DNA from: an uncultured Actinomycetota bacterium
GTDB taxonomy: Bacteria; Actinomycetota; Actinomycetes; Propionibacteriales; Nocardioidaceae
Assembly: GCA_963753705.1 (NCBI GenBank)
Contig: CAVWDJ010000002.1
Coordinates: 437,195-501,194, forward strand
DNA length: 64,000 bases
Direction: 5' to 3'
In this document: positions 13,908 through 56,371 of the stretch, in pieces
Layout of the letters: the number at the start of each line of letters is the position of its first letter
Position numbering within the stretch: position 1 is the first letter of the stretch
Translations under genes and position numbers: made by a program
Notes under the pieces: model-generated
Database searches by the model: none
Seen by the model: only the letters and a program-made list of their open reading frames with translations
Told to the model about the DNA's origin: nothing

Positions 13908-13946
13908 CCGGGACCCTGAGGCGCCCTGTGGAGCGCTGGTCACTGC

Positions 13947-14030
13947 TTCATCATGTGATGCAGGCGAACCGTCACTTCTCATGGCGAACTCACCGTGTGA
14001 AGCCATGCTCCACCTGCATCACATGATGAA
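13947..14030. repeat. 84-bp palindromic intergenic element, copy 1 (REP/MITE-like)
   Basis: Perfect 18-bp terminal inverted repeat TTCATCATGTGATGCAGG (13947-13964) / CCTGCATCACATGATGAA (14013-14030). First 24 nt are identical to 43327-43350. Confidence 0.85.
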
Positions 14031-14077
14031 ACTGAGGTCAGCCCGGTGTTCGCGACCGCCGATGACAGGATGGGCAC

Positions 14078-39462: not shown

Positions 39463-39568
39463 GCAGGGGACCTCGGGAAGGTCTCGCCGTGTAAGACCCA
39501 GTCGCGGGATGCGCGTCGTACAAATGGATTCGTGGTCTGTCGGTGCCCAGGGTTACAGTCGACCAACG

Positions 39569-41347
39569 ATGCCTCCTGACCCCCACAGCCACCCGCCGGC
39601 CAGCGTCCACTCGCTCTGGCGCCTACGGGGCTACCTGAGGACGCACATCCCGGCCCTCGTCATCATGCTGGTGACCTCGATGTCGGGCATCGCGGTCGCC
39701 ATCTCGATCCCTCTGGTGATCAAGGCGCTCATCGACGGCCCGATCGAGGACCACGACGCGAGCGGCATCCTCCCGCTGGGTCTGCTGGTGCTGGGGCTGG
39801 GCGTGCTCGAGGCGTTCTTGATCTGGTGGCGCCGCTGGGTGCAGAACAAGGCGGTCCTCGAGGTCGAGACCGAGATGCGCCACGACCTCTACGAGCGGCT
39901 GCAGGAGCTCCCGATGAGCTTCCACAGCCAGTGGCAGTCGGGTCAGCTGCTCTCCCGGGCGACCACCGACCTGTCCGCCATCCGGCGGTTCTTCGGCTTC
40001 GGGATGCTGTTCCTGGTCGTCAACATCACCCAGGTGGTGGTCACCACCCTGGTGCTGCTCCACCTCTACTGGCCGCTCGGCCTGGTCGTCGCCGCGACGT
40101 CGGCACCGATCGTGTGGCTCTCGATGCGCTTCGAGAAGGGCTACGTCGTCGTCTCGCGCGACGTGCAGGACCAGCAGGGCGACCTCGCCACGCTGGCCGA
40201 GGAGGGCGCCGTCGGCATCCGGGTGATCAAGTCCTTCGGTCGCTCGCCCCACGTCTCCGAGCAGTACGACGTCTCCGCGCGGCGCCTGCTCGACACCAGC
40301 GTGGCCAAGGTGCGCCTCTCCGCCCGGTTCTGGACCTTCCTCGAGATGATCCCCAACCTCGCCGTGGTGATCGTGCTGCTGCTCGGTGCGATCGGCGTCG
40401 GCCGCGGTGCGCTGACGCCCGGAGAGCTGGTCGCCTTCATCACCCTGATGCTGTCGCTGGTGTGGCCGGTGGCCTCGCTGGGCGTGATCCTGGCGATGGC
40501 CCAGGAGGCTATGACGGCCGCTGCGCGGGTGCTCGAGATCTACGACACCCTGCCCGACATCGTGTCCGGCACGGCCACGGCTCCGCCCGCCCGCGGCCAC
40601 CTCCGGTTCGAGCACGTCGACTTCACCTACCCGGGGTCCGACACGCCCGTCCTCCGCGACGTCAACCTCGACCTGGCCCCGGGCGAGACGCTGGCCCTCG
40701 TGGGCTCCACCGGCTCGGGGAAGACGTCGCTGACGGCCCTCGTCCCGCGCCTCTACGACGTCAGCGGCGGCCGGGTCACCATCGACGGGGTCGACGTCCG
40801 CGACTACTCCCTGCTCGACCTGCGCTCGATCGTCGCGACCGCGTTCGAGGAGCCGACGCTGTTCTCGATGAGCGCCCGCGAGAACCTCACGCTCGGCCGC
40901 TCCGACGCCACCGAGGACGAGATCGCCGAGGCCATCGAGATCGCGCAGGCCGGCTTCGTCCACGACCTCCCGTGGGGTCTCGACACCCGCATCGGCGAGC
41001 AGGGCATGTCGCTGTCGGGGGGCCAGCGGCAGCGCCTCGCGCTGGCCCGCGCCGTGCTCGCCCAGCCCCAGGTGCTCGTGCTCGACGACACGCTCTCGGC
41101 GCTCGACATCCACACCGAGAAGCTGGTCGAGGACGCCCTCCGGCGCGTCCTCGCGGCCACCACCGGTCTCGTCGTCGCCCACCGGGCCTCGACGGTGCTG
41201 CTCGCCGACAAGGTCGCGCTGCTCCAGGACGGCACGATCACCCACGTCGGCGACCACCGGCACCTGCTGGCGACCGTCCCGGCCTACCGCGAGCTGCTCG
41301 CGGCCGACGCCGACGACCTCGACGACCTCGAGGACGTGTCCGCATGA
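39569..41347 (+). CDS. ABC exporter half (TMD+NBD), degenerate ATPase site
   Basis: Six TMs, GSTGSGKT, LSGGQRQR, Walker B LVLDD (Asp at the catalytic Glu position). Start ATG 39569. Confidence 0.92.
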   Translation: MPPDPHSHPPASVHSLWRLRGYLRTHIPALVIMLVTSMSGIAVAISIPLVIKALIDGPIEDHDASGILPLGLLVLGLGVLEAFLIWWRRWVQNKAVLEVETEMRHDLYERLQELPMSFHSQWQSGQLLSRATTDLSAIRRFFGFGMLFLVVNITQVVVTTLVLLHLYWPLGLVVAATSAPIVWLSMRFEKGYVVVSRDVQDQQGDLATLAEEGAVGIRVIKSFGRSPHVSEQYDVSARRLLDTSVAKVRLSARFWTFLEMIPNLAVVIVLLLGAIGVGRGALTPGELVAFITLMLSLVWPVASLGVILAMAQEAMTAAARVLEIYDTLPDIVSGTATAPPARGHLRFEHVDFTYPGSDTPVLRDVNLDLAPGETLALVGSTGSGKTSLTALVPRLYDVSGGRVTIDGVDVRDYSLLDLRSIVATAFEEPTLFSMSARENLTLGRSDATEDEIAEAIEIAQAGFVHDLPWGLDTRIGEQGMSLSGGQRQRLALARAVLAQPQVLVLDDTLSALDIHTEKLVEDALRRVLAATTGLVVAHRASTVLLADKVALLQDGTITHVGDHRHLLATVPAYRELLAADADDLDDLEDVSA

Positions 41348-43200
41348 CGACGACCCAGACACCTCCGGCCGAGCAGGTCCCCGAGGGGCAGGAGTGGCGC
41401 GGCGTCGCCGCCGACGGCCGTGACGACCTCACCGCCGAGACCACCGCCCGGCTCGCCGGACGGTCCCGTCGCCTGCTGAAGGACCTCCTGACCCCCTACC
41501 GCAGCGAGGTCAAGCTCCTCGGGGTGGCGGTGCTCGTCGAGAACGCCGCACGCCTGTCGATCCCCCTGCTCGTGGCCCTGGGCATCGACCGGGGCATCCC
41601 GCCGATCCAGAAGGACGACGACCTGGGGCCGCTGCTGGTCATCGTCGGGATCGTCCTGGCGGCGACGCTCATCCAGGCGGTCGCGCGCAACATCTTCCTG
41701 GTCCGCTCCGGACAGATCGGTCAGGACATCCTGTTCGAGATCCGGCAGCGCGTCTTCCGCCAGTTCCAGCGACTCAGCCCGGCATTCCACGACTCCTACA
41801 CCTCGGGGCGGGTGATCTCCCGCCAGACCTCCGACGTCGACGCGATCTACGAGATGCTCGAGACCGGCTTCGACGGGCTGATCACCGCCGCGCTCACGCT
41901 GTTCGGCACCGCCGTCCTCCTGCTCTTCCTCGACGTGAAGCTGGGCCTGGTCGCCCTGCTCTGCGGTCCCTTCCTCGCCTGGGCGACCAACTGGTTCCGC
42001 AAGGAGTCGGCGAAGAGCTACCGGGTGACCCGCGAGAAGGTCGCGCTGGTGATCGTCCACTTCGTGGAGTCGATGAACGGCATCCGCGCCGTCCAGGCCT
42101 TCCGCCGCGAGCCCCGCAACCAGGAGATCTTCGACGACGTCAACGACCAGTACCGCGCGGCCAACCTGGTCGCGTTCCGGCTGGTCGCCTGGTTCATGCC
42201 CGAGATCCGGCTGATCGGCAACGTCACCATCGCCGTCGTGCTGATCTACGGCAGCTACCTCGCCTTCGACGGCCAGGTCACCGTCGGCGTACTGGCCGCG
42301 TTCCTGCTCTACCTGCGGCAGTTCTTCGAGCCGATGATGGACATCTCGCAGTTCTACAACACCTTCCAGTCCGCCAACGCGGCGCTGGAGAAGATCTCGG
42401 GCGTGCTCGAGGAGGAGCCCGGCGTCCCCGAGCCGACCGCCCCGGTCGCCCTGGCCGACGCGCGTGGCGACCTCCGCTTCGATGGCGTCCGGTTCTCCTA
42501 CGTCGACGGCGTCCCCGTGCTGCCTGGCCTCGACCTCACCGTCCCGTCCGGTCAGACCGTGGCCCTGGTCGGCACCACCGGCGCCGGCAAGACCACGATC
42601 GCCAAGCTGGCCACTCGGTTCTACGACCCGATCGACGGCGCGGTCACCCTCGACGGCGTCGACCTGCGCTCGCTCACCTCGGCCGACCTCCACCGGGCGG
42701 CGGTGATGGTGACCCAGGAGAACTACCTCTTCTCCGGCACCATCTCCGACAACATCCGCTTCGGTCGCCCCGATGCCACCCAGGACGACGTCGAGGCGGC
42801 GACGCGCGCGCTCGGCGCCCACGGCTTCATCGCCGCGCTGCCCGAGGGCTACGACACCGACGTCTCCAACCGCGGTGGCCTCCTGAGCGCCGGTCAGCGC
42901 CAGCTGATCGCCTTCTCCCGCGCCTTCCTGGCCGACCCCGCGGTGCTCATCCTCGACGAGGCGACCTCGTCGCTCGACATCCCGTCGGAGCGGCTGGTCC
43001 AGCGCGCACTGCGCACCATCCTGGCGAACCGTACGGCCGTGATCATCGCCCACCGCCTGTCCACCGTGGAGATCGCCGACCGGGTGCTCGTCCTCGAGCA
43101 CGGCCGGATCGTCGAGGACGGCACCCCGGCCGACCTGATCGAGGGCGGCGACGGCCGGTTCTCCGACCTCCACGAGGCCTGGCTCCAGTCCCTCGCCTGA
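41344..43200 (+). CDS. ABC exporter half (TMD+NBD), consensus ATPase site
   Basis: GTTGAGKT, LSAGQRQL, ILDEATS, AHRLST. ATGA overlap; a heterodimeric exporter pair is likely. Confidence 0.92.
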   Translation: MTTTQTPPAEQVPEGQEWRGVAADGRDDLTAETTARLAGRSRRLLKDLLTPYRSEVKLLGVAVLVENAARLSIPLLVALGIDRGIPPIQKDDDLGPLLVIVGIVLAATLIQAVARNIFLVRSGQIGQDILFEIRQRVFRQFQRLSPAFHDSYTSGRVISRQTSDVDAIYEMLETGFDGLITAALTLFGTAVLLLFLDVKLGLVALLCGPFLAWATNWFRKESAKSYRVTREKVALVIVHFVESMNGIRAVQAFRREPRNQEIFDDVNDQYRAANLVAFRLVAWFMPEIRLIGNVTIAVVLIYGSYLAFDGQVTVGVLAAFLLYLRQFFEPMMDISQFYNTFQSANAALEKISGVLEEEPGVPEPTAPVALADARGDLRFDGVRFSYVDGVPVLPGLDLTVPSGQTVALVGTTGAGKTTIAKLATRFYDPIDGAVTLDGVDLRSLTSADLHRAAVMVTQENYLFSGTISDNIRFGRPDATQDDVEAATRALGAHGFIAALPEGYDTDVSNRGGLLSAGQRQLIAFSRAFLADPAVLILDEATSSLDIPSERLVQRALRTILANRTAVIIAHRLSTVEIADRVLVLEHGRIVEDGTPADLIEGGDGRFSDLHEAWLQSLA

Positions 43201-43203
43201 GCG

Positions 43204-43285
43204 GGGCCGGGGGCGAGGCACGTCTCGACCGTCGCCCACGACGTGGGCCGGGGGCGAGGCACGTCTCGACCGTCGCCCACGACGT
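43204..43285. repeat. Exact 41-bp tandem duplication
   Basis: GGGCCGGGGGCGAGGCACGTCTCGACCGTCGCCCACGACGT at 43204 and 43245. Confidence 0.92.
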
Positions 43286-43326: not shown

Positions 43327-43410
43327 TTCATCATGTGATGCAGGCGAACCTCGGCTTCACACGGTGAGCTCGCCATGTGAAGCCGAGGTTCGACACCTTC
43401 ACATGGTGAA
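43327..43410. repeat. 84-bp palindromic intergenic element, copy 2
   Basis: Perfect 17-bp inner inverted repeat CGAACCTCGGCTTCACA (43345-43361) / TGTGAAGCCGAGGTTCG (43376-43392). Same length as 13947-14030, with related ends and core. Confidence 0.85.
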
Positions 43411-43433
43411 ACTGCTCACCCGAGCCGCACGAC

Positions 43434-43461
43434 CGAACCGAATCACCGGTTCTGTCGTATA
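43434..43461 (+). promoter_or_regulatory. SigL-type ECF promoter (autoregulatory candidate)
   Basis: CGAACC-N16-CGTATA, ending 18 nt before the sigma ATG. Confidence 0.7.
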
Positions 43462-43479
43462 CCTGGTGTGGGAGGTGTG

Positions 43480-43992
43480 ATGGCCGAGAGCCCCGACGTC
43501 GTGATGCAGCGTCTGCACGACGAGCATGCCGGCGCGCTCTGGGGCCATTGCCTGCGCCTGACCAACTACGACCGTGCCCGTGCCGAGGACGTCTGCCAGG
43601 AGACGCTGCTGCGCGCCTGGCGGAACGCGTCGCTGCTCGACGAGGGTCAGGGGTCGGTCCGGGCCTGGCTGTTCACGGTCGCCCGCAACATCGTGATCGA
43701 CGAGTCGCGCACCCGGCGCGCCCGCTCGGAGTTCCCCGTCGACGAGGTGCCCGAGCCGGGGACCGCCGACGACGGGAGCGACGAGCTGCTGATGACCTGG
43801 GTGGTCGCGGACGCGGTGACCCACCTGTCCGCGGAGCACCGTGCGGTGCTCCAGGAGTGCTACTTCAACGGCCGCTCGGTGGCCGAGGCCGCTCGCCGGC
43901 TCGGGATCCCCGAGGGGACCGTCAAGTCGCGGACCCACTACGCACTGCGCGCCCTCCGGCTGGCCCTCGAAGAGATGGGAGTGGTCTCATGA
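43480..43992 (+). CDS. ECF sigma factor, SigL-like
   Basis: LHDEHAGALW...AEDVCQETLLRAW...RAWLFTVARNIVIDE...GTVKSRTHYALRALRLAL resembles mycobacterial SigL. RBS GGAGGT. Confidence 0.85.
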   Translation: MAESPDVVMQRLHDEHAGALWGHCLRLTNYDRARAEDVCQETLLRAWRNASLLDEGQGSVRAWLFTVARNIVIDESRTRRARSEFPVDEVPEPGTADDGSDELLMTWVVADAVTHLSAEHRAVLQECYFNGRSVAEAARRLGIPEGTVKSRTHYALRALRLALEEMGVVS

Positions 43993-44672
43993 GCTGCTCC
44001 TACACGACCTGGGACGGCGCCTACGTCCTCGGCTCCCTCTCGTCGGCCGACCGTCGCGAGTTCGAGAGCCACCTGGCCGGCTGCCCCGAGTGCTCGCGCG
44101 CCGTGCGCGACCTGGCCGGCCTCCCGGGCCTGCTCGGCCGGCTCGACCCCGAGGTGTTCGAGGAGGGTGAGCCCGAGCCGGTCCCCGACACGCTGCTGCC
44201 GCGGCTCGTGGCTGCGATGCACCGCGGTCAGCGTCGTCGTACGTGGATGACCGCCGGGCTCGCCGCCGCGGCCGCCGTCGTGGTGACGGTGGGCGGAGTC
44301 GCCGTGCTCGACCGGAGCACGGGCGGCACCCCGACCGCCAGCCCGCCCAGCATCATCACCTCGAGCGCCCAGCCGATGACCCCGGTCGGCAACGACCCGA
44401 TGACGGCCAGCGTGTCGCTCACGTCGGTCGCATGGGGCACGCGGGTGGACATGACCTGCAGCTACCCGCAGTTCCACGGCGACTACGAGGGCGGGTCCTA
44501 CGCGCTGGTCGTGCACACCCTCCACGGTGGCACCGAGCGGATCGCGACCTGGAACGGTCTGCCGGGCAAGACCATGCACCTCACCGGCGCCACCGCCTCG
44601 CAGAAGGCACAGATCACGTCGGTCGACGTCACCCGCATCGACGGTGCGCCGGTGCTGCACCTCTCGCTCTGA
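43989..44672 (+). CDS. Zinc anti-sigma factor, RslA-like (ZAS, TM, extracytoplasmic domain)
   Basis: WDGAYVLGSLSSADRREFESHLAGCPEC (HxxxCxxC), TM, WGTRVDMTCSY. Confidence 0.88.
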   Translation: MSCSYTTWDGAYVLGSLSSADRREFESHLAGCPECSRAVRDLAGLPGLLGRLDPEVFEEGEPEPVPDTLLPRLVAAMHRGQRRRTWMTAGLAAAAAVVVTVGGVAVLDRSTGGTPTASPPSIITSSAQPMTPVGNDPMTASVSLTSVAWGTRVDMTCSYPQFHGDYEGGSYALVVHTLHGGTERIATWNGLPGKTMHLTGATASQKAQITSVDVTRIDGAPVLHLSL

Positions 44673-44713
44673 CTCACTGAGGCGCCGGGTGCGCCCATCC
44701 GTGGCCCCGTGGG

Positions 44714-44864
44714 CTGTCGAACCGGCGCAATTGCGCGGTTGTGACAGGTGGTGGGTCCCGCGGACTGTCGAAGCGGCGCGATTGCGCCACTTCGGCAGGA
44801 CCGGGCAGGACCGGGCAGGACAGGACCGGGCAGGGCAGGACCGGGCAGGGCAGGACCGGGCAGG
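44714..44864. repeat. Two 23-bp near-identical palindromic units followed by ~70 bp of GGCAG/GACCG pentamer tandem
   Basis: CTGTCGAACCGGCGCAATTGCGC (44714) and CTGTCGAAGCGGCGCGATTGCGC (44765); GGCAGGACCG-based array at 44794-44864. Confidence 0.85.
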
Positions 44865-44884
44865 GGGACGGCGGACGCCGAGGC

Positions 44885-45271
44885 TCAGGAGGCCACGGCG
44901 GCGTGCTCACGCGCGGGGGCCGTACGACGCTCGTGGACGAGCAGGTACAGGCCACCGATGATCGCGACGGCCTCGGAGACCGCGGCGGTCCAGACGTAGG
45001 GGCCCTGCCACTTCTCGTGGTCGCCGAACAGCCCCCAGGTCGCGGCGATGACGAAGCCGCCCAGGGTCGAGGCACCGAAGCCGAACGCGAGGAACGGCGG
45101 CACCCAGTGCTGCCAGGTGACCAGCAGGATCGCGATCACGATGCCGGCCACCCCGTTGACGATGAAGAGCGGCCCGATCACGTGGACGTGACGGAAGCCG
45201 TCGAACCACTCCTTGAGGTGCACGTACGCCGAGACGAGGACGGCAGCAGCGGTGATCCAACGGACGGTCAT
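44885..45271 (-). CDS. Small 4-TM His-containing membrane protein, paralog A
   Basis: MTVRWITAAAVLVSAYVHLKEWFDGFRHVHVIGPLF...GDHEKWQGPYVW; RBS GGAGAG. Confidence 0.85.
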   Translation of the reverse strand: MTVRWITAAAVLVSAYVHLKEWFDGFRHVHVIGPLFIVNGVAGIVIAILLVTWQHWVPPFLAFGFGASTLGGFVIAATWGLFGDHEKWQGPYVWTAAVSEAVAIIGGLYLLVHERRTAPAREHAAVAS

Positions 45272-45313
45272 GGTGCTCTCTCCGATCCGGGCCCGGTGCG
45301 GGCCCTCAGTGGA

Positions 45314-45341
45314 GACACGAGGAAGCGGCCGGATCGGTTCG
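45314..45341 (-). promoter_or_regulatory. SigL-type promoter for paralog A
   Basis: Minus strand CGAACC-N16-CGTGTC. Confidence 0.75.
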
Positions 45342-45342
45342 G

Positions 45343-47676
45343 TCAGGGGGCCGTGGAGCGCGAGCCGAACGCGGCGAGGAACCGGTCGCGGAACTCGTTC
45401 ATGGGCACCGTCGGCGTCGTGGTCGCCGGCTGCAGGCCGGGGGTCCAGCCCCACGACGAGATGTGGCGCAGGACGGCCGGGTCGTGGGCGATGAGCGAGA
45501 CGGGAACGTCGTGGGAGGCGCCGTAGCCGCTGACCGCGGCGTTGGGCTGGTGGTCGCCGAGGACGACCATGACGAGGTTCTTGTCGTGGGCGTGGTGGAC
45601 GAACGACACCAGCGACTGCAACGAGTAGCGGATGGACCGTGCGTACCGGGTCTGTTGGGCCCGGGGGTGGGCGAGCGTGGAGAGCAACGACGTGTCGTAG
45701 GGCACGCCGGCGCCGCGCACGCTGGTGTAGATCGTGCCGTCGCCGACGGCGTCCCACGGCACCAGCCGGGGCAGCGAGGTCCAGGGGGTGTGGCTCGAGT
45801 CGAGGTCGATCTCGGCCATCACCGGCCGGTGGTGCGGGCCCAGCTCGAGGTCGTCGAAGGCGTGCAGCGTGTACTGGTCGGGGACCCGGGCGTAGCCCAG
45901 GCGGGGGCCGGCGTACCCCACGTCGTACGAGCCGTACATCCGGTCGTAGTGGTAGAACCGCTGTCCCTCGGGCCAGGCGTGCCAGTTCGACGGGACGTCG
46001 TCGACCGTGCGCCAACCCGCCTTGCGGAAGGCCCAGGCGAGGGTGAGCCGGTCGGTGCCCAGCACCTGGTCGTAGCGCTGCTGGGAGTCGATCCACAGCC
46101 CGGACTGGAGCGTGGAGTGGGCGAGCCAGCTGATGCCGCCGAAGGTGGGCGAGCCCAGCCAGCCGCTGCGCGCCTGGAAGCCGAGACGTCCGAGGTGCGC
46201 GGTCGCCCCGGTCAGCGTGCGGTCGACCTGGGGCGCGAACCAGGAGTCCTCCACGGCGACGCGGCCGTAGCTCTCGACGAAGACCAGGAGGACGTCCTTG
46301 CCCCGGAGTCGGGTCAGCAGGTCGCGCCCGGGGGTGAGGGCATACGCGTCGTGGGTCACCGCCTGCTCGAAGACCGCTCGGTCGTGGAGCTCGGCGCGGA
46401 CCTGGTCGACCTGGCCGGCGACCAGGGACGCGGTGGGCGCGCCGGCGATCTGGACGCCGCTGACCTGGGCACCACCGACCCCGGCCACCAGCCAGACGAC
46501 GGCGAGCCCGGCGAGCACCCTGCTCCAGACCCGCGGTGCGCTCGTGACGGTACGACGGGTGCGCACGGCCGACCACACGCAGAGGGCCGCGCCCCCGAGC
46601 AGCAGCAGCACGATCGCGACGAGGACCACGACCTCGCCTGCGCGCCCCACCGAGGCGTGCAGCAGGTCGAGCCCGGAGCCGAGGTAGGACGGGTCGGTCA
46701 ACGGGTTGAACGGGCGGTCGAACGCCTCGTAGAAGCCGAGGTCGAGCACGGTCACGACCACGGCGACGGCCAGCAGGATCCCTCCGACGACCGCCACCGC
46801 GCGCCCCCAGGCGGGCGGCAGCACGAGCACGAGGAGCAGGAAGACCAGCAGCTCGACCGGGATCGCGAGCAGAGCGGCGGCCGTCAGCTGCTCCGGACGC
46901 TGCGGCACGACCAGGGCGAGCCAGACCAGCGCGAGGGCGGCGGCGTCGAGCGCCGGACGGACCAGCGGTGACTGGGGAACCTCGTGCTCGTGCCGGTGTC
47001 GCCGCAGGGTGGCCACCTGGCGTCCGAACGACTCCAGGAGCAGGAGCAGCGCCGCGGCCAGCAGAGCCTGGGCCCACACCGTCGGAAGGACCTCGGCCGC
47101 GGCGACGACGAGGACGATCCCCTGGACCGCTGCCACGACCTTGGCCCACGGACGCGGTCGCGCCGGCCCCCCGAGCCAGGGCCAGACGGCGGTCGCCAGG
47201 AGCAGGAGGTAACGGGCCAGGCCGATCAGCAGCACCCAGGCGCCGGCGACCGGCACGACGTAGAGGCTCAGGACGAGGATCAAGAAGGCGTCCGTCTCCA
47301 TGTCGAAGGCCGCACCCAGCTCGGTGACCGTGCCGCGGGCCCGGGCGAGGCGGCCGTCGACGAAGTCCAGGGCCAGGGCGACCGTGCTCAGGGCCACGAC
47401 CAGGGAGCGGGGCACCTCGCTGCTCCACGACTGCACGACGAGCACCGTGACCGCCACGACCAGGCCGGCACGGACCAGGGTCACGGCGTTGGCCGCCCCC
47501 AGGCGTGCCAGGCCCTCGCGGCGCAGGCCGCGTTCGAGGAACAGCCAGAGCGCGACCGTCAGGACCGCGCCGGTGACCAGCGCGGGCACGCCGAGTCCGA
47601 CCGTGACGTCGAGCACGACGAGCAGACCCGCGACGCTCGGCAGTACGGTCAGTGGACCGGCGTGAACCGTGCGCAC
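45343..47676 (-). CDS. CDP-alcohol phosphotransferase fused to a TM region and a sulfatase/alkaline-phosphatase-like domain
   Basis: DFVDGRLARARGTVTELGAAFDMETD (DGxxARxxxxxxxxGxxxDxxxD); then VLLVFVESYG, SPTFGGISWLAHST, SSHTPW, LGDHQP. GTG 47676 follows GGAGG. Confidence 0.85.
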   Translation of the reverse strand: MRTVHAGPLTVLPSVAGLLVVLDVTVGLGVPALVTGAVLTVALWLFLERGLRREGLARLGAANAVTLVRAGLVVAVTVLVVQSWSSEVPRSLVVALSTVALALDFVDGRLARARGTVTELGAAFDMETDAFLILVLSLYVVPVAGAWVLLIGLARYLLLLATAVWPWLGGPARPRPWAKVVAAVQGIVLVVAAAEVLPTVWAQALLAAALLLLLESFGRQVATLRRHRHEHEVPQSPLVRPALDAAALALVWLALVVPQRPEQLTAAALLAIPVELLVFLLLVLVLPPAWGRAVAVVGGILLAVAVVVTVLDLGFYEAFDRPFNPLTDPSYLGSGLDLLHASVGRAGEVVVLVAIVLLLLGGAALCVWSAVRTRRTVTSAPRVWSRVLAGLAVVWLVAGVGGAQVSGVQIAGAPTASLVAGQVDQVRAELHDRAVFEQAVTHDAYALTPGRDLLTRLRGKDVLLVFVESYGRVAVEDSWFAPQVDRTLTGATAHLGRLGFQARSGWLGSPTFGGISWLAHSTLQSGLWIDSQQRYDQVLGTDRLTLAWAFRKAGWRTVDDVPSNWHAWPEGQRFYHYDRMYGSYDVGYAGPRLGYARVPDQYTLHAFDDLELGPHHRPVMAEIDLDSSHTPWTSLPRLVPWDAVGDGTIYTSVRGAGVPYDTSLLSTLAHPRAQQTRYARSIRYSLQSLVSFVHHAHDKNLVMVVLGDHQPNAAVSGYGASHDVPVSLIAHDPAVLRHISSWGWTPGLQPATTTPTVPMNEFRDRFLAAFGSRSTAP

Positions 47677-47731
47677 CCTGCCTCCGTATGTCTGGATACC
47701 AGTCATACGACGACGGGCCGGCGTCGGTTCA
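47663..47731. promoter_or_regulatory. Two face-to-face (divergently transcribing) SigL-type promoters
   Basis: Plus strand TGAACC(47663)-N16-CGTATG(47685-47690). Minus strand TGAACC(47731-47726)-N16-CGTATG(47709-47704). Confidence 0.8.
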
Positions 47732-47759
47732 GGACCAGCCGGACGTGGAGGGAGCCGAC

Positions 47760-48755
47760 GTGTCACCAACGGCCCGCGCCTACTGGCTGTGCGCGCCCGG
47801 GTCCGGCGAGATCCGCACCGTGGACCTCCCGGACCCGGGACCGGGGGAGGTGCTCGTGCGCACGCTGGTCTCGGGGGTGAGCCGTGGCACAGAGGCACTG
47901 GTCTTCCGCGGCGGGGTCCCCGAGAGCCAGTACGCCGTGATGCGGGCGCCCTTCCAGGAGGGCGAGCTCCCCGGCCCGGTCAAGTACGGCTACCTCAACG
48001 TCGGTGTGGTCGAGGAGGGCCCCGTCGGGCTCCGTGGGCGCACCGTCTTCTGCCTCCACCCCCACCAGACGGCGTACGTCGTGCCGGCCGACGCGGTCGC
48101 CGTCGTCCCCGACGGCGTCCCGCCCCGACGCGCTGTGCTGGCCGGCACCGTCGAGACCGCGGTGAACGCGCTGTGGGACGCCGCGCCGCTGGTCGGTGAC
48201 CGCGTCGCCGTCGTCGGCGCCGGCATGGTCGGCTGCTGCGTGGCCCGGCTGCTCTCCGGCTTCCCCGGCGTCGACGTGACGTTGGTCGACACCGACGCCG
48301 GTCGCGAGCCGGTCGCGGCCGCGCTCGGCGTCGCCTTCGCCCTGCCGGGAGACGCCCCTGCCGACTGCGACCTGGTGGTCCACACGAGCGGCACCGCCGC
48401 CGGGCTGCAGCTCTCGCTCGACCTGCTCGGCGCCGACAGCACCGTCACCGACCTCAGCTGGTACGGCGACGCCCCGGTCGCCCTGTCGCTCGGCGGACGC
48501 TTCCACTCCGCGCGCCTGGGCATCCGTGCCAGCCAGGTGGGCGAGGTCGCGGCGGCGCGTCGCGGGCGACGCACGCGGGCCGACCGGCTGCGCCTCGCGC
48601 TGTCGCTGCTCGCCGACCCGGCGTACGACGCGCTGCTGACGGGGGAGTCGCCCTTCGCCGAGCTGCCCGGGCTGATGGCAGAGCTCGCCTCCGGCGCGGT
48701 TCCGGCGCTGTGCCACACGATCACCTACGACAGTGACGACGAGAGGGAGGCCTGA
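47760..48755 (+). CDS. MDR-family (alcohol-dehydrogenase-like) oxidoreductase
   Basis: [25 protein letters not shown] Rossmann motif. GTG 47760 after GGAGGG. Confidence 0.85.
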
Positions 48756-49153
48756 TGTTCGAGGTGACCGTACGCGACCACATGATGGTCGCGCACTCCC
48801 TGCGCGGCGAGGTCTTCGGCCCGGCCCGGGCGCTCCACGGCGCGACGTTCGTCGTCGACGCGGCGTTCGCCCGGGACGACGTCGACGCCGACGGCATCGT
48901 CCTCGACATCGGTCGCGCCACCGAGGCGCTGCACGCGATCCTCGCCGAGCTCACCTACCGCAACCTCGACGAGGTCGAGTCGCTCGCCGGGCTCAACACC
49001 ACCACCGAGGTGCTCGCGCGCGAGATCGCCGACCGGCTCGCTGCCCGTGTGCACGACGGCGCTCTCGGCGTCGCCGCCGGCGACCTGGCCCGGATCCGGG
49101 TCACCCTCCACGAGTCGCCCGTCGCCTGGGCGAGCTATGAGCGTGCCCCATGA
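48755..49153 (+). CDS. 6-pyruvoyl-tetrahydropterin synthase/QueD-fold protein (PTPS-IV-like)
   Basis: [27 protein letters not shown]...YRNLDE...NTTTEVLA...[13 protein letters not shown]. No CxxxHGH motif. Confidence 0.85.
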
Positions 49154-50241
49154 CCGTCCCCGCCCGCACGCTGCACGCCGTCCTGCCTGCCGGGATCGAC
49201 GATCCGGCCAGGCCCAGCGGCGGCAACGTCTACGACCGCCGGAGCCTCGACGGCCTGCGCACCCTCGGCTGGTCGGTCGTCGAGCACGAGGTCGGCGGCG
49301 ACTGGCCGCGCCCCGACCTGGCCGACCTGGCCCGCCTGTCGCTGCTGCTCGACGAGCTGCCCGACGGCGCCCTGCTGCTCGTCGACGGCCTCGTCGCCTC
49401 GGCGGCGGCCTCGGTCCTGCCGGCGGCGTCGACGCGGCTCCGGGTCGTGGTCCTGCTCCACCTGCCGCTCGGGCCGGGCGCGGCCGAGGAGACGGTGCTG
49501 GCCTCGGCGGCTGCGGTCGTCACGACGAGCGAGTGGGCCCGCACCCAGGTGCGCTCGTGGTACGGCCTCCGCCACGTGTACGCCGTGCGGCCCGGCACCG
49601 ACGCGGCGCCTCTCGCGTCGGGCACCGGGACCGGGGAGGCGCTCCTGTGCGTCGCGACCGTGCATCCCGGCAAGGGCCACGACCTCCTCCTGGAGGCCCT
49701 GGACCGACTGGGCGACCGCCCGTGGACGCTGGTCTGCGCCGGCTCGCTCGATGTCGACCCCGACCACGCCGCCGCCGTCCAGGCGCAGGTGTACGCCCGC
49801 CGATGGGAGCGCAGGGTGACCTTCACGGGCCCGCTGGTCGGCTCAGCACTCGAGGCGGCGTACGACCTGGCCGACGTGGTGGTGCTGCCGTCACGCGGCG
49901 AGAGCTTCGGGATGGTCGTGACCGAGGCGTTGGCCCACGGACTCCCGGTCGTCGCGACGCGGACGGGTGGTGTGCCCGAGGCCCTCGGACGTGCTCCGGG
50001 TGGCGCGCTTCCCGGGTTGCTCGTGGCTCCCGACGACCCCACAGCCCTGGCCGACGGTCTGGCGCGATGGCTCGACGAGCGGCACCTGCGCGACCGGCTC
50101 CGTCGCGCGGCCGCGCTGCGTCGACCGACCCTCTCGGGCTGGGACCACACGGCCGCAGACCTCGCCGACGTCCTGGCCGGCGTCGGCGGCAGGGTCGCCG
50201 CCGGTGGCCCTGCCCGGGCCGACGTCGGGAGCCGACGATGA
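49150..50241 (+). CDS. GT4 (GT-B) glycosyltransferase
   Basis: [45 protein letters not shown]. Confidence 0.9.
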
Positions 50242-51200
50242 GCCTGCCGACCGTGCCGCCGAGGGTCCGCTCGGCCTGGCCGTGGCTCCGCGTCGTCGGC
50301 GGGGTCGCCGTCCTGGCCGCACTGCTGTGGCAGTTCGGGACCGGCCCCTTCGCGGAGGCGTGGCACGTCACCACCTGGCCTGCGGTGCTCGGCGCGCTGG
50401 TCCTGACCGCCGCGTCCACCCTGACCTCGGCCTGGCGCTGGCGCACCGTCGCCCGGGCGTACGGCGTACCACTGACGCCTCGCGAGTCCCTCACCGCCTA
50501 CTACCGTTCGCAGTTCCTCAACGCCACCCTGCCCGGCGGCATCCTGGGCGACGCCCACCGCGCCGTGCGGCACGGTCGCGAGGTCGGCGACGTGACCTCA
50601 GGGGTCCGGGCGACGGTGTGGGAGCGCGTGTCCGGCCAGGTCGTCCAGCTCGCGCTGCTGCTCGTCGTCCTGACCACCCTCGCCTCCCCGATGCGACCCC
50701 TGGCGCCGCTCGCCGCGGGCGGCCTGCTCGTGGTGGCCGTCGCGGGCTGGCTGGTGCTCAGGCGGGGCGGGCGGACGGCAGGTGACCTCCGCGCCCTGGG
50801 CGCCCCGGGCACCCTGGTCCGCATCGCGGGCGCCTCGTGCGGCTCGTCCCTGGGTCATCTCGCCGTGTTCCTGCTGGCGGTGCGTGCCGTCGGCGTCGAC
50901 GCGCCGTGGACCGTGCTGGTCGCGACCGGGCTCGTGGTGATGGTCGGCTCGTCGATCCCGGTCAACGTCGCCGGATGGGGGCCGCGCGAGGGCCTCACCG
51001 CCTGGGCGTTCGGCCTGGCCGGCCTCGGGTCGGCCGCGGGCCTGACCGTCTCCGTGGTGTACGGCGTGCTGGCGGCCGTCGCGACCCTGCCCGGGGCCCT
51101 GGTGCTGGTCGCCGACGCCACGGCCCGACGAGGTCGTGCGACAGTGGAGGTCCCAGAACCCGTACCGGCCGGACAGCTGGAGGGAGTGCGCCGTGGCTGA
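50238..51200 (+). CDS. Lysylphosphatidylglycerol-synthase-TM / UPF0104 flippase-like membrane protein
   Basis: AWRWR, YYRSQFLNATLPGGILGDAHRA, ERVSG, PVNVAGWGPREG. Confidence 0.88.
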   Translation: MSLPTVPPRVRSAWPWLRVVGGVAVLAALLWQFGTGPFAEAWHVTTWPAVLGALVLTAASTLTSAWRWRTVARAYGVPLTPRESLTAYYRSQFLNATLPGGILGDAHRAVRHGREVGDVTSGVRATVWERVSGQVVQLALLLVVLTTLASPMRPLAPLAAGGLLVVAVAGWLVLRRGGRTAGDLRALGAPGTLVRIAGASCGSSLGHLAVFLLAVRAVGVDAPWTVLVATGLVVMVGSSIPVNVAGWGPREGLTAWAFGLAGLGSAAGLTVSVVYGVLAAVATLPGALVLVADATARRGRATVEVPEPVPAGQLEGVRRG

Positions 51201-51909
51201 GCGCCCCTACACCCTGCTGAGCTGCAGCATGTCGATCGACGGCTACATCGACGGCGCGTCCGAGAGCCGCCTGATGCTGTCCAACGAGCTCGACTTCGAG
51301 CGCGTCGACCGGGTCCGCGCCGGCGTCGACGCGATCCTGGTCGGGGCGACGACGGTGCGCAACGACAACCCGAGGCTGCTGGTGCGTGACCCCGCACGAC
51401 GCAGGCACCGCGTCCGGCGGGGCCTGCCGGAGAGCCCGACCAAGGTCACGGTCACCGAGCGTGGCCGCCTCGACCCGTCGTCACGCTTCTTCGCCGACGA
51501 CGGCGCCGACAAGCTGGTGTACGGCAGCAGCTGCGTGGTCGACCTGCTCGAGCGGCGGGTAGGCCACCTCACGGAGGTCGTCGACGGCGGCGAGCCGGTG
51601 CGGATGCGCGAGCTGGCCGAGGACCTGCACGGACGCGGCGTACGCCGGCTCATGGTCGAGGGCGGAGGCGCCGTCCACACGCAGTTCCTCGCCGACGACC
51701 TGGTCGACGAGCTCCAGCTCGTGGTGGCACCGTTCTTCGTCGGTGAGCCCGGGGCCCGTCGCTTCGTGGGCGAAGGGCACTTCCCCTGGCATCCCGGACG
51801 CCGGGCCCGACTGGCCGCGACCGAGCAGATCGGTGACGTGGTCCTGCTGCGCTACGCGCTCTCCGAGCGTTACGACGAGACGCCCGACTTGGCCCGCCCG
51901 GTCCGCTGA
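51193..51909 (+). CDS. RibD C-terminal-like pyrimidine reductase
   Basis: SCSMSIDGYID, DAILVGATTVRNDNPRL, RLMVEGGG, DLVDELQLVVAPFFVG. Confidence 0.88.
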   Translation: MAERPYTLLSCSMSIDGYIDGASESRLMLSNELDFERVDRVRAGVDAILVGATTVRNDNPRLLVRDPARRRHRVRRGLPESPTKVTVTERGRLDPSSRFFADDGADKLVYGSSCVVDLLERRVGHLTEVVDGGEPVRMRELAEDLHGRGVRRLMVEGGGAVHTQFLADDLVDELQLVVAPFFVGEPGARRFVGEGHFPWHPGRRARLAATEQIGDVVLLRYALSERYDETPDLARPVR

Positions 51910-52304
51910 GGGGTCTCGGCCCGACGACGGCCACCGCGCGGGCGGGGCGCAGCGGGCACCGGGTCCTCGAGCAGGATCGCCAGGGCGCCGGCGATCGCGA
52001 CGAGCTCGGCGATCGCGGCCGCCCAGACGTAGAAGCCCTCCCAGTGCTCGTGGGTGCCGTAGAGGCCGACCGTGGCGGCGAGCGTGAACGCGCCCAGCGT
52101 GCACACCCCGAAGCAGGCCGCGAGCACGGCGGGTGCCCAGTGCCGCCACCGGACGAGCAGGGCAGCGATGGCCAGCCCGCCCACGACGTTGACCAGGAAC
52201 GCGGGTCCGATCACGTGGACGTCCCGCATGCCCTGGAACCACAAGGTGAGGTGGATGGCCATCGAGGCGAGCACGGCTGCGGCCGTGATGTAGCGCAAGG
52301 TCAT
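51870..52304 (-). CDS. Small 4-TM His-containing membrane protein, paralog B
   Basis: 67/111 identical to paralog A in an ungapped hand alignment; ATG 52304. Confidence 0.85.
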   Translation of the reverse strand: MTLRYITAAAVLASMAIHLTLWFQGMRDVHVIGPAFLVNVVGGLAIAALLVRWRHWAPAVLAACFGVCTLGAFTLAATVGLYGTHEHWEGFYVWAAAIAELVAIAGALAILLEDPVPAAPRPRGGRRRAETPQRTGRAKSGVSS

Positions 52305-52347
52305 GACAGGGGCCCTCTCTTCGCTGCGCGAGGCGTCAGCTGACGAC

Positions 52348-52375
52348 GACACGTTCGGGGGCCGTGTCCGGTGTG
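52348..52375 (-). promoter_or_regulatory. Degenerate SigL-type promoter for paralog B
   Basis: CACACC-N16-CGTGTC; same -10 element and spacer as the paralog A promoter. Confidence 0.45.
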
Positions 52376-52675: not shown

Positions 52676-53302
52676 ATGAGGATCAACCGACGAACGCTGG
52701 CCGCCACGGGCGCGGCGGCACTGGCGACCGGCGCGGCGGTCGTGGGGGCGACCCACGCCGACGCCGCGGCCCAGAAGAACGTCTTCGCCATGCACCGCTC
52801 GCCCGGCATCGTCGCGGCAGGCTGCCTGCCCCACGCCAAGGCGAGGGTGGTCGTGCAGAACCAGGGGCCCGTGGAGGTGATGAAGATCCACGCGTCGGGT
52901 CTGCCCAAGCACACCGACTTCGACCTGTTCGTCATCCAGGTGCCCAACGCTCCGTTCGGCATCGGTTGGTACCAGGGTGACCTGGAGACCAACAAGAAGG
53001 GGGAGGCCGACGGCACCTTCGTCGGTCGGTTCAGCCAGGAGACCTTCGCGGTCGCCCCGGGCACGGCCCCGGCGCCCTCGGTGCACGACGGACCCTTCCC
53101 CGACGCCACGACGAACCCGGCCTTCGGCCCGATCCACACGTTCCACCTCGGACTGTGGTTCAACTCGCCGCGGGCTGCGGGCAAGGCGGGCTGCCCGACG
53201 GCCGTGACGCCGTTCAACGGCGAGCACAATGCCGGAGTCCAGGCGCTCAACACCGCCGCGTTCCCCGACGCGAAGGGCCCGCTCGGTCGGCTGAAGCCCT
53301 GA
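52676..53302 (+). CDS. Secreted 208-aa hypothetical protein (possible Tat signal)
   Basis: MRINRRTLAA...ATHADA; aromatic beta-rich body with two Cys. RBS GGGAG; strong high-GC codon pattern. Confidence 0.8.
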   Translation: MRINRRTLAATGAAALATGAAVVGATHADAAAQKNVFAMHRSPGIVAAGCLPHAKARVVVQNQGPVEVMKIHASGLPKHTDFDLFVIQVPNAPFGIGWYQGDLETNKKGEADGTFVGRFSQETFAVAPGTAPAPSVHDGPFPDATTNPAFGPIHTFHLGLWFNSPRAAGKAGCPTAVTPFNGEHNAGVQALNTAAFPDAKGPLGRLKP

Positions 53303-55090: not shown

Positions 55091-56371
55091 TCAGCCGTGC
55101 GACCGCGCCTGTTCGGCCCGCCCGAGCAGGAGGGTCCGCTCGCCGCCGTTCGACGTCAGCCCGGCGGCCTCGATGAAGGCAGCCGCTGCCTCCTCGGACC
55201 GGCCCAGGCGCTCGAGCAGGTCTCCGCGGACGCTGGGCACCAGGTGGGAGCCGGCCAGTGCCGGGTCCGAGGCGACGGCGTCGAGGACGGCCAGGCCGGC
55301 CTCGGGCCCGGCGGCGCGGCCGTGGGCCACGGCACGATTGACCTCCACGACGGGGTTGTCGCCGACCTGGGCCAGCACGTCGTACCACCCGGCGATCGCG
55401 GCCCAGTCGGTCTCGCCGGCCGTCTGGGCCCGGGCATGGCAGGCGGCGATCTGCGCCTGGATCACGTAGGACCCGATGGGTCGGCCGGCCGCGCTCGCGG
55501 CCATGGCCCGGTCGAGGCTCGCGAGCCCGCGGCGGATCAGCAGGGCGTCCCACGTCGCGCGGTCCTGGTCGTCGAGCAGGACCGGCCGGCCCTCGTGGTC
55601 CGTACGGGCGTGCAGCCGCGAGGCGTGCAGCTCCATCAGGGCCAGGAGCCCGTGCACGTCGGGCTCGAGCGGGGCCAGGCCGGCCAGCATGCGAGCCAGC
55701 CGGATCGCCTCGACGCAGAGGTCGGGGCGCATCCAGTCGTCGCCGGACGTAGCGGCGTACCCCTCGTTGAAGATCAGGTAGAGCACGCCCATCACGTCGT
55801 CGAGCCGCTCCTCGCGCTCGCGGCCGACGGGCAGCTCGAAGGACTCACCGGCGAGCGCCTTCTTCGCGCGAGAGATGCGCTGGCCGACGGTGGCGTCCTT
55901 GGTCAGGAAGGCCCGCGCGATCTCGGGCACCGTGAGGCCGCCGACGAGGCGCAGAGTGAGCGCCGCGCGGCTCTCGGGGGACAGGGCGGGATGGCAGGTC
56001 AGGAAGATCAGGCGCAGCACGTCGTCGTCGATGTGGTCGACGAACGCATCGAGGTCGGGCATGTGCACCTCCTCCCGCTCCTGCAGGGCATGGCCGAGCT
56101 CCGCCGTACGGCGACGCAGGGTGTCGGCGCGCCGGAAGTGGTCGATGGCGCGCCGCTTCGCGGTCTGCATGAGCCAGGCCGCGGGGTTGTCGGGGACTCC
56201 CTCGCGGGGCCACTGCTGGAGGGCGGCGACGAGAGCGTCCTGGGCGAGGTCCTCGGCCAGGCCGAGGTCGCGAGTCATCCGGGTGAGGGCACCGACGAGC
56301 CGTGCGGACTCGTCGCGCCACACTCGCTGGATCGTGTCCTCGGTGGACTGGGTGGTCCCCGCCTCTCTCAC
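55091..56371 (-). CDS. ECF42-type sigma factor with C-terminal TPR-like extension
   Basis: AEDLAQDAL...WPREGVPDNPAAWL, DDVLRLIFLTCHPAL, LRLVGGL, LYLIFNEGY, YVIQAQIAACH, PVVEVNRAVA. Confidence 0.9.
   Translation of the reverse strand: MREAGTTQSTEDTIQRVWRDESARLVGALTRMTRDLGLAEDLAQDALVAALQQWPREGVPDNPAAWLMQTAKRRAIDHFRRADTLRRRTAELGHALQEREEVHMPDLDAFVDHIDDDVLRLIFLTCHPALSPESRAALTLRLVGGLTVPEIARAFLTKDATVGQRISRAKKALAGESFELPVGREREERLDDVMGVLYLIFNEGYAATSGDDWMRPDLCVEAIRLARMLAGLAPLEPDVHGLLALMELHASRLHARTDHEGRPVLLDDQDRATWDALLIRRGLASLDRAMAASAAGRPIGSYVIQAQIAACHARAQTAGETDWAAIAGWYDVLAQVGDNPVVEVNRAVAHGRAAGPEAGLAVLDAVASDPALAGSHLVPSVRGDLLERLGRSEEAAAAFIEAAGLTSNGGERTLLLGRAEQARSHG

Follow-up and report, generated by a model that had tools for sequence, protein, structure and literature searches.

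ECF sigma factor regulons are familiar systems, and previous work has examined SigL in Mycobacterium tuberculosis. The consensus of its SigL promoters, derived from five promoters, comprises a −35 element TGAACC and a −10 element CGTGTC (PMC2703886), the latter extended to C-G-T-G-N-C/A-A-G by Lin et al. in 2019 (PMC6372665). The partner protein, RslA, is described as a membrane-associated, redox-sensitive zinc anti-sigma factor whose oxidation causes zinc release or disulphide formation and frees the sigma factor (PMC2877774); it is also a substrate of Rip1 (PMC10449499). A preliminary description of the DNA analysed here had given TGAACC/CGTgtc as the SigL consensus and RslA as a redox-sensitive membrane ZAS anti-sigma factor, in agreement with PMC2703886 and PMC2877774, respectively.

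Here, in a window of 64,000 nucleotides (the whole stretch of DNA that was analysed) from an uncultured member of the Nocardioidaceae, a soil bacterium of Nocardioides type, we describe a block that is very likely a self-contained SigL regulon, in which free SigL would drive five promoters and a facing pair of these would share initiations. The spacer of M. tuberculosis SigL promoters is 16 nt, and ECF sigma factors commonly autoregulate; redox sensitivity is not common to every ZAS protein. Our literature search, which was incomplete in coverage, found no paper describing a link between SigL and the biosynthetic cluster of the block, nor an ECF group number for SigL.

SigL and RslA orthologues

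The sigma factor of the block (Table 1) has an ECF architecture with regions 2 and 4 only (Sigma70_r2, residues 13-80; Sigma70_r4, residues 115-160). It scores 228.2 bits against the SigL subfamily model NCBIfam NF007227/PRK09645 (M. tuberculosis Rv0735; cut-off, 202), with the next family at 91 bits, and its best PDB match is M. tuberculosis SigL (6DV9, chain 6DV9_F; E = 3.9e-46, compared with 4.5e-14 for SigK). It is the only SigL-like sigma factor in the genome, which also holds at least ten other ECF-like sigma factors of 29-39% identity. The anti-sigma factor contains a zf-HC2 domain and matches RslA best in the PDB (3HUG_B, E = 2.2e-20). Its zinc ligands C3, H28, C32 and C35, arranged as C3...H28-LAG-C32-PE-C35 (H-x3-C-x2-C plus an upstream Cys), are invariant in 22 orthologues, and a hydrophobic, transmembrane-like segment lies near residues 86-105. 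Judging from these matches, the pair are true SigL/RslA relatives. Modelling suggests a ZAS domain, one transmembrane segment and an extracytoplasmic Ig-like β-sandwich; a fold search with this model returned a generic Ig-like sandwich for the extracytoplasmic domain (best E = 0.012, antibody domains) and no clue to a ligand.

The residues that determine −10 specificity in M. tuberculosis SigL, His54 (−12) and Asp60 (−11), are Asn and Glu in the local sigma factor in an ungapped alignment, and Nocardioides SigL orthologues mostly carry Asn (few carry His) and Glu at these positions. This is consistent with the alternation of A and G at '−11' of the local promoters. Given these replacements and the presence of A at three of five sites where M. 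tuberculosis SigL most strongly prefers G, −10 recognition by the local sigma factor is not identical to that of its M. tuberculosis counterpart.

Table 1 Predicted promoters and genes of the block (positions in the window)
Feature	Position	Strand	Predicted start	Description
P_sigL	43434..43461	+	~43467-43468	CGAACC 43434-43439, N16, CGTATA 43456-43461; putative autoregulatory promoter; 18 nt gap to ATG 43480; SD GGGAGG 43470-43475
sigL orthologue	43480..43992	+		ECF sigma, 170 aa
rslA orthologue	43989..44672	+		Anti-sigma, 227 aa; start overlaps sigL stop by 4 nt
Paralog A (parA)	44885..45271	-		Membrane protein, 128 aa; orphan family
P_parA	45314..45341	-	~45307-45308	CGAACC 45341-45336, N16, CGTGTC 45319-45314; starts 1 nt beyond the fusion-gene TGA stop
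Fusion gene	45343..47676	-		777 aa; CDP-alcohol phosphatidyltransferase, TM region, sulfatase/LtaS-like domain (Pfam)
Fusion gene start	GTG 47676	-		SD GGAGG 47685-47681; position fixed by conservation
P_fusion	47704..47731	-	~47697-47698	TGAACC 47731-47726, N16, CGTATG 47709-47704
P_ADH	47663..47690	+	~47696-47697	TGAACC 47663-47668, N16, CGTATG 47685-47690
ADH operon	47760..51909	+		Five translationally coupled genes
MDR/ADH-like gene	47760-48755	+		ADH operon gene 1
PTPS gene	48755-49153	+		ADH operon gene 2; FGPAR motif
GT4 gene	49150-50241	+		ADH operon gene 3
LPG_synthase_TM flippase-like gene	50238-51200	+		ADH operon gene 4
RibD_C reductase gene	51193-51909	+		ADH operon gene 5
Paralog B (parB)	51870..52304	-		Membrane protein, 144 aa; 59% identical to paralog A
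P_parB remnant	52348..52375	-		CACACC 52375-52370, N16, CGTGTC 52353-52348

Gene content of the block

The genes of the ADH operon overlap by 1-8 nt, which supports the operon structure. Its PTPS reads FGPAR, four of the five residues of the FGPAQ signature that replaces the catalytic Cys motif in the COG0720 subfamily PTPS-IV (PMC5445326). We found no published link of PTPS-IV neighbourhoods to an ECF sigma factor and no literature on PTPS together with a CDP-alcohol transferase. The cluster may make an envelope lipid-linked glycoconjugate. A search with paralog A retrieved 519 proteins without any Pfam domain, an orphan family found mostly in Nocardioides; the named sources among the best matches were all Nocardioides or Nocardioidaceae. 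In the 5′ untranslated region of paralog A a GGGCC-loop-GGCCC hairpin is conserved, with GGAUCGGAG after it; that of paralog B has a GC hairpin ahead of the Shine–Dalgarno sequence.

Promoter motifs are concentrated in the block

All five motif matches reported previously are present at the stated coordinates and on the strands given in Table 1, each with a 16-nt spacer, and every transcription unit of the cluster beside sigL is preceded by one. In the window, GAACC-N16-CGT occurs 8 times compared with 2.6 ± 1.6 times in shuffled sequences, none of which (0/100) reached 8. A search of the complete 4.38-Mb assembly in both orientations gave just 16 matches to the strict pattern [CT]GAACC-N16-CGT[AG]TN, 5 of which fall within the 9.7 kb between 43.4 and 53.2 kb; the background outside the block predicts around 0.02 matches per 9 kb (both strands), compared with the four strict sites claimed. 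A chance cluster is excluded.

A further strict match, the sixth, was overlooked in the five-site list. This match, 53135-53162 (-), is antisense to a secreted-protein gene and encodes H-T-F-H-L-G-L-W-F on the opposite strand; in L020, the closest relative, the CGT is lost through a synonymous replacement of ACG by ACC. The motif is not conserved, and we regard it as a coding coincidence. A reverse-strand match at 43429-43452 is a by-product of the GAACCG/CGGTTC palindrome in the P_sigL spacer and is conserved in the closest relatives only. Elsewhere in the assembly, one strict match (contig C24) is a co-assembled orthologue of P_sigL, and chance was judged to account for two in rRNA spacers adjoining 5S, one antisense to coding DNA (C13:1837) and one overlapping an ABC permease start (C3:1395). 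The sole remaining candidate for a target outside the block is C12:199449-199476 (-), which lies 8 nt ahead of the start codon (ATG) of a gene for a DUF2231 membrane protein. Between 42.5 and 54 kb, an Rfam scan gave sub-threshold miRNA noise only; a scan for E. coli-type sigma-70 promoters returned 0 sites, weak evidence in an actinobacterium.

Conservation across related loci

Among 29 orthologous Nocardioidaceae loci, the motif stands upstream of sigL in 21/21, paralog A in 27/27, the CDP-alcohol-transferase/sulfatase fusion in 24/24, the ADH-PTPS-GT4-flippase-RibD_C operon in 25/25 and paralog B in 14/18 loci. It was found in 0/196 regions upstream of 11 other genes and in 0/95 upstream regions internal to the ADH operon. 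The search upstream of orthologous clusters that the preliminary description proposed was therefore positive. At the purely intergenic promoters the hexamers are fixed and the spacers vary across loci, and the motif is missing where the target gene is missing (L001, which has no parA, and the loci that have no parB). Two cultured organisms, N. antri and Nocardioides sp. WL0053, have a layout identical to the local block; both carry the P_sigL site, as does N. luti, in which the cluster is not adjacent to sigL. Nearly every locus has an ECF42-type sigma factor in synteny with the block. Copies of the biosynthetic cluster that lack SigL are found in Nocardiopsis, Myxococcota, Acidobacteriota and others, and in the three named groups the motif is absent as well.

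The paralog B match is present with the 16-nt spacer, as first noted, and its −35 element is poor (4/6 compared with CGAACC). The site is homologous to CGAACC-N15/16-CGTG in 14/18 other loci; it has decayed in this lineage and is probably weakened in this genome.

By sequence matching, the target motif TGAACC-N16-CGTgtc is present and conserved before the targets and sigL itself, pointing to a real, conserved local SigL regulon in which transcription starts and sigma dependence are predictions. The motif agrees with the −35 TGAACC and −10 CGTGTC published for M. tuberculosis SigL and with the C-G-T-G-N-C/A core. As the layout recurs in around 30 related genomes, one signal very probably switches on the neighbouring membrane-lipid/sugar pathway. 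The original idea of a single signal acting on the whole cluster, which would be extracytoplasmic or redox in nature, is supported.

We propose that SigL is kept inactive at rest by the membrane zinc anti-sigma factor RslA. If the M. tuberculosis system is a guide, RslA would be inactivated either when the thiols of its H-x3-C-x2-C zinc site are oxidized or by regulated proteolysis begun at the extracytoplasmic β-sandwich. Freed SigL with core RNA polymerase would then initiate around 6-7 nt past each [T/C]GAACC-N16-CGT[A/G]T box, yielding the sigL-rslA operon (positive feedback), the small membrane protein paralog A, the CDP-alcohol-phosphatidyltransferase/LtaS-like fusion, the coupled ADH-PTPS(IV-like)-GT4-flippase-like-RibD_C operon and paralog B, this last output presumably strong in the ancestor and weak, if it occurs at all, in this genome.

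A face-to-face promoter pair

P_fusion and P_ADH have 13 bp between their −10 hexamers and form a symmetric element of 68 bp, TGAACC...CGTATG-N13-CATACG...GGTTCA. Their predicted starts coincide within 1-3 bp, and by these starts each promoter lies in the first 35 transcribed bases of the other. The P_ADH −35 element falls within the third to fifth codons of the fusion gene. The CCTCCGT of P_ADH and the Shine–Dalgarno sequence of the fusion gene are reverse complements; the sequence that flanks the −10 element in one arm also acts in the other as ribosome-binding site. Coding and Shine–Dalgarno constraints partly explain the conserved spacers of the facing pair, so its footprint carries less weight than those of parA or sigL. 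An alternative fusion-gene start, ATG 47706 within the −10 element CGTATG, was rejected: it is out of frame with the conserved V-R-T-V-H start in L011 and L021, and GGAGG-N4-GTG lies downstream in all loci.

Because their predicted starts all but coincide, P_fusion and P_ADH are expected to exclude each other; one polymerase would occupy the pair at a time, dividing initiations between the two arms. We tentatively raise a further reading, which we consider possible but doubtful: that the pair is a hard-wired partition device, setting a fixed ratio of the membrane transferase to the cytoplasmic biosynthetic enzymes independently of signal strength. On this reading every bound SigL-polymerase would have to choose one arm, as the predicted starts share about one base pair, with the promoter of each arm situated in the initially transcribed region of the other.

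Alternative explanations

The boxes might be real ECF promoters that a different ECF sigma factor reads in full or in part, with SigL one of several inputs. The many further ECF-like sigma factors of the genome (29-39% identity), the syntenic ECF42-type factor and the altered −10 specificity residues all lend this some weight, and many ECF sigma factors read GGAAC/CGT-like boxes, making cross-recognition possible. We nevertheless consider it improbable, as the motif precedes sigL in every locus in which that region was compared (21/21), and also in N. luti despite its non-adjacent cluster, and its sequence agrees with the SigL consensus and not with boxes of the GGAAC type.

Less probable still is that the 68-bp element serves a dimeric DNA-binding regulator as its operator and is not a pair of promoters. 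Although its central 25 bp form a highly conserved imperfect palindrome, CGTATGaCtGGTaACCgGaCATACG, the half-sites have the same sequence and 16-nt spacing as the non-palindromic sigL, parA and parB sites; the half-to-half distance shifts from 68 to 78 in N. antri and 72 in WL0053 while N16 is kept in each half; and, apart from sigL-rslA, no conserved regulator gene adjoins the element. The symmetry itself follows from head-to-head promoters, because a C-Y-G-G-T run after the hexamer is common to several of the other promoter classes. Conservation of the matches through coding or other constraints alone, without promoter function, seems the most remote of the three. The sixth match is exactly such a case and the facing pair partly overlaps the fusion-gene start and Shine–Dalgarno sequence, but the parA, parB and sigL sites are non-coding with freely varying spacers and flanks, the presence of the motif tracks the downstream gene, and the control regions contain none (0/196).

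Significance and comparison with known systems

The SigL regulon that we favour couples a biosynthetic cluster that is itself uncharacterised to a defined sigma/anti-sigma switch, and activating SigL in cultured Nocardioides would be a direct route to inducing the cluster and identifying its product. The conserved head-to-head pair, with near-coincident predicted starts, would offer a clean example from nature of competition between promoters that use one sigma factor; if the partition reading holds, the regulon would also be a genetic switch, thrown by rslA deletion or sigL overexpression, toward the product of a widespread orphan PTPS-IV/CDP-alcohol cluster. Around 130 naturally varied predicted SigL promoters, with natural changes at two specificity residues, allow ECF −10 recognition to be studied by comparison.

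The convergent pR/pL promoters of coliphage 186 are a pair with transcriptional interference. The local pair would share with such pairs overlapping polymerase footprints, in which occupancy of one promoter excludes the other. It differs in the predicted use of one alternative sigma factor by both promoters, in predicted starts so close that the transcripts diverge and barely overlap, in a −10 flank that serves as the Shine–Dalgarno sequence of the opposite arm and in being kept in around 30 genomes. With PTPS-IV neighbourhoods the block has in common a glycosyltransferase and a pyrimidine-reductase-type gene near the PTPS, whose FGPAR stretch resembles the FGPAQ signature; unlike them, it has no GTP cyclohydrolase gene.

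The SigL-RslA regulon of M. tuberculosis comprises sigL-rslA, mpt53-Rv2877c, pks10-pks7 and Rv1139c-Rv1138c. Both systems have an orthologous sigma factor and membrane ZAS anti-sigma factor, a −35 TGAACC, a 16-nt spacer (given for M. tuberculosis in the preliminary description) and a CGT-initiated −10 element, and both are small regulons of membrane and lipid-related operons with autoregulation, predicted in the local case. The local targets, by contrast, are unrelated (PTPS-IV-like, GT4, flippase-like, RibD_C and CDP-alcohol-transferase genes and two orphan 4-TM proteins) and all contiguous with sigL; three sites read CGTAT(A/G) where G is preferred at '−11' in M. tuberculosis, Asn and Glu take the places of His54 and Asp60, and two of the promoters stand face to face.

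Identity of the sigma and anti-sigma factors

The sigma factor of the block scores 228 bits on NF007227 (PRK09645; cut-off 202), and its closest solved relative is Mycobacterium tuberculosis SigL (6DV9, E = 3.9e-46), with SigK, SigE and SigH trailing far behind; a genome search found no second SigL-like sigma factor in the organism. The rslA product has RslA (3HUG_B, E = 2.2e-20) as its best and only solved relative. Its ZAS zinc-ligand set (C3, H28, C32 and C35) is invariant in 22 orthologues, and beyond the ZAS motif lie a hydrophobic, transmembrane-like segment and an Ig-like β-sandwich (model pLDDT about 90); a fold search with this model gave no informative match. RslA is redox-sensitive (PMC2877774) and also serves the Rip1 site-2 protease as a substrate (PMC10449499). 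In the orthologue, the ZAS ligands would allow redox sensing, and the conserved extracytoplasmic domain, taken with the M. tuberculosis precedent, would allow regulated proteolysis.

The promoter elements of M. tuberculosis SigL, derived from five promoters, are TGAACC (−35) and CGTGTC (−10) (PMC2703886). The preliminary description had given both this consensus and the redox sensitivity of RslA, and the literature agrees with it on each. Lin et al. refined the −10 element to C-G-T-G-N-C/A-A-G, showed specificity at ‘−12’ and ‘−11’ to be set by His54 and Asp60, and found that initiation works best when the spacer to duplex DNA is 6 nt long (PMC6372665); their scaffold places the start about 7 nt (range 5–8) after the hexamer. 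The residues corresponding to His54 and Asp60 are Asn and Glu in the local sigma factor, and the −10 element is CGTAT(A/G/C) at sigL and both facing promoters but CGTGTC at the paralogs, a division that recurs from species to species; together these differences suggest a relaxed or shifted ‘−11’ preference.

Promoter motifs across the block

Five motif instances, each with a 16-nt spacer, lie exactly where the preliminary description had located them. Gene calls were based on open reading frames, GC3 and conservation, with domains assigned separately.

Features of the block in window coordinates, with the number of orthologous loci carrying [CT]GAACC-N15–17-CGT within 130 nt upstream of the gene
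Feature	Position	Strand	Remark	Motif upstream
ABC1	39509-41347	+	ABC exporter gene 1	
ABC2	41344-43200	+	ABC exporter gene 2	
Tandem duplication	43204-43285		exact, 41 bp, directly after ABC2 stop	
Inverted repeat	43329-43408		long, GAACCTCGGCTTCACA...TGTGAAGCCGAGGTTC, after the duplication, immediately upstream of P_sigL	
sigL	43480-43992	+		21/21
rslA	43989-44672	+		
Repeat	44803-44865		15-bp unit GGGCAGGACCGGGCA x 4.2, between convergent rslA and parA	
parA	44885-45271	-	paralog A	27/27
parA 5' UTR	45272-45313	-	GC hairpin GGGCC-loop(3-6)-GGCCC, then GGAUCGGAG, right before SD	
fusion	45343-47676	-	777 aa, CDP-alcohol phosphatidyltransferase with sulfatase/LtaS-like domain	24/24
P_ADH	47663-47690	+	TGAACC-N16-CGTATG	
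P_fusion	47704-47731	-	TGAACC-N16-CGTATG	
MDR/ADH-like	47760-48755	+	first of five overlapping genes (ADH operon)	25/25
PTPS	48755-49153	+		
GT4	49150-50241	+		
LPGtm	50238-51200	+	LPG_synthase_TM/flippase-like	
RibD_C	51193-51909	+	last of five overlapping genes	
parB	51870-52304	-	paralog B	14/18
parB 5' UTR	52305-52347	-	GC hairpin GCCGCC-loop-GGCGGC, then GAAGGGGGA, right before SD	
Sixth match	53135-53162	-	antisense within secreted-protein gene	
ECF42-type sigma	55091-56371	-	long C-terminal extension, beside YCII/DGPF-like gene	

The window contains 8 matches to GAACC-N16-CGT, where shuffled sequence gives 2.6 ± 1.6. Genome-wide, when spacers of 13–20 nt are compared, GAACC-N16-CGT[AG]T is over-represented at 16 (22 matches, versus 0–14). 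The strict form [CT]GAACC-N16-CGT[AG]TN has 16 matches when both strands of the entire assembly are counted, five of them within 43.4–53.2 kb, one the orthologue of P_sigL on contig C24 and two in rRNA spacers. This clustering and over-representation argue that the motif is not equally common in random intergenic DNA. The sixth match is set aside as coincidence, because a synonymous change breaks it in the closest relative. The only credible target candidate outside the block is C12:199449-199476 (−), a CGAACC-N16-CGTATA sequence; the gene it precedes encodes a 157-aa DUF2231 membrane protein, and its ATG follows 8 nt later, a distance that would imply a leaderless or near-leaderless mRNA.

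The repeats between the ABC operon and sigL may serve as a terminator or insulator.

Conservation in orthologous loci

A search with the fusion protein returned 41 loci, of which 29 are full orthologous blocks with 53–92% protein identity and retained synteny; the related loci all belong to Nocardioides or Nocardioidaceae, mostly soil MAGs. The search for the motif in orthologous clusters, a check that the preliminary description had proposed, found it before all five gene classes and in 0 of 196 cases upstream of 11 other genes (ABC1, ABC2, rslA, PTPS, GT4, LPGtm, RibD_C, secreted protein, glyoxalase, hydrolase and ECF42). Its presence follows that of its gene: locus L001 lacks both paralogs and both their sites, and loci without parB lack the parB site too. 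At the non-coding promoters (sigL, parA and parB) the hexamers are fixed while spacers and flanks drift, and in rare variant sites the boxes persist with a spacer of N15 or N17.

The paralog B site was found at its place with an N16 spacer, but its −35 box, CACACC, is a decayed form that aligns with CGAACC in other species. The window/L020, L015, L004 and L016 each show an independent decay of the −35 or −10 box. On these alignments P_parB reads as a SigL promoter that was present in the ancestor and whose strength today is doubtful; that it is active in the present-day genome seems possible, if somewhat doubtful.

The paralog 5′ UTR hairpins are kept in loci L002–L030, with a nearly invariant stem and a variable loop, and have no Rfam match. 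Nearly all orthologous loci carry the ECF42-type sigma gene in synteny with the SigL block, and the two ECF systems therefore travel together.

The assembly (4.38 Mb, 72% G+C) is mixed: C24 and C3 carry 87–93% identical syntenic copies of 394–481 kb of C2, the contig of the window, including a second, orthologous ABC–sigL–rslA stretch on C24. C24 (whole, 82 kb) and C3 together provide a second and, for part of it, a third copy of this >80-kb stretch in full synteny, a picture that fits a mixed bin of related species better than a duplication. The alignment of the C24 sigL falls into two pieces that overlap, suggesting a frameshift or assembly error.

The facing promoter pair

The −10 hexamers of P_ADH and P_fusion are separated by 13 bp, and one motif is offset from the other by 68 nt in 27 loci and by 69 nt in 2. 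Starts predicted 6–7 nt past each hexamer fall at 47696–47698 for both promoters, so that the transcripts would diverge from essentially one base pair, with each promoter occupying +8 to +35 of the other. Given standard polymerase footprints, we infer that open complexes at the two cannot coexist. For P_sigL and P_parA the predicted starts lie near 43467–43468 (+) and 45307–45308 (−). The CCTCCGT of P_ADH is the reverse complement of the fusion Shine–Dalgarno sequence, and the −35 box of P_ADH lies in fusion codons 3–5, which accounts at least in part for the conservation of its spacer. The central palindrome could be read as a separate operator; the sigL, fusion and ADH sites share a C-Y-G-G-T run 2–6 nt past the hexamer, and parA has a looser form of it, which argues that the palindrome is simply two promoters.

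An ATG within the −10 element was ruled out as the fusion start; the true start is the GTG at 47676, preceded by GGAGG. In N. antri (L043) the public calls for the fusion and ADH-like genes (11225–13717 and 13596–14582) overlap by about 120 nt, since each has its start placed too far upstream, across the facing pair.

A probable SigL regulon in Nocardioidaceae

In N. antri and Nocardioides sp. WL0053 (sigma 74–78% and fusion protein about 49% identical to the window's) sigL adjoins the cluster, the motif precedes sigL and a facing pair lies between the two arms; WL0053 has an additional site before its parA homologue. The offsets of 78 nt (N. antri) and 72 nt (WL0053) indicate that the facing arrangement is kept and the exact start coincidence is not. 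In N. luti (L042) sigL lies away from the cluster, and SigL-type boxes at 9432 and 11224 (+) precede a CHRD–sigL–rslA unit (CHRD gene co-oriented) and a Rieske gene; local SigL regulon content thus varies among Nocardioides species. Nocardiopsis, Vicinamibacterales, Polyangiaceae, Nannocystales and proteobacterial MAGs carry the same biosynthetic genes with no SigL and no motif at the cluster, so that the linkage is restricted to Nocardioidaceae among the genomes retrieved, and the cluster is much more widespread than its SigL linkage.

Collectively, the sequence comparisons argue for the block being a real, conserved and locally organized SigL regulon, and SigL–RslA very probably governs the four strong promoters. 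The CDP-alcohol transferase, GT4, flippase-like protein, LtaS-like ectodomain, PTPS-IV-like protein and RibD_C-type reductase tentatively suggest an exported lipid-linked glycoconjugate with a GTP-derived head group. A literature search, with most subscription journals outside its coverage, found no paper describing the SigL–cluster linkage. The regulon offers a practical handle for switching on an orphan biosynthetic cluster, and its head-to-head promoter pair for the same sigma factor is a notable feature; in M. tuberculosis, SigL is autoregulated (PMC10449499) and its regulon comprises four small operons (PMC4105308).
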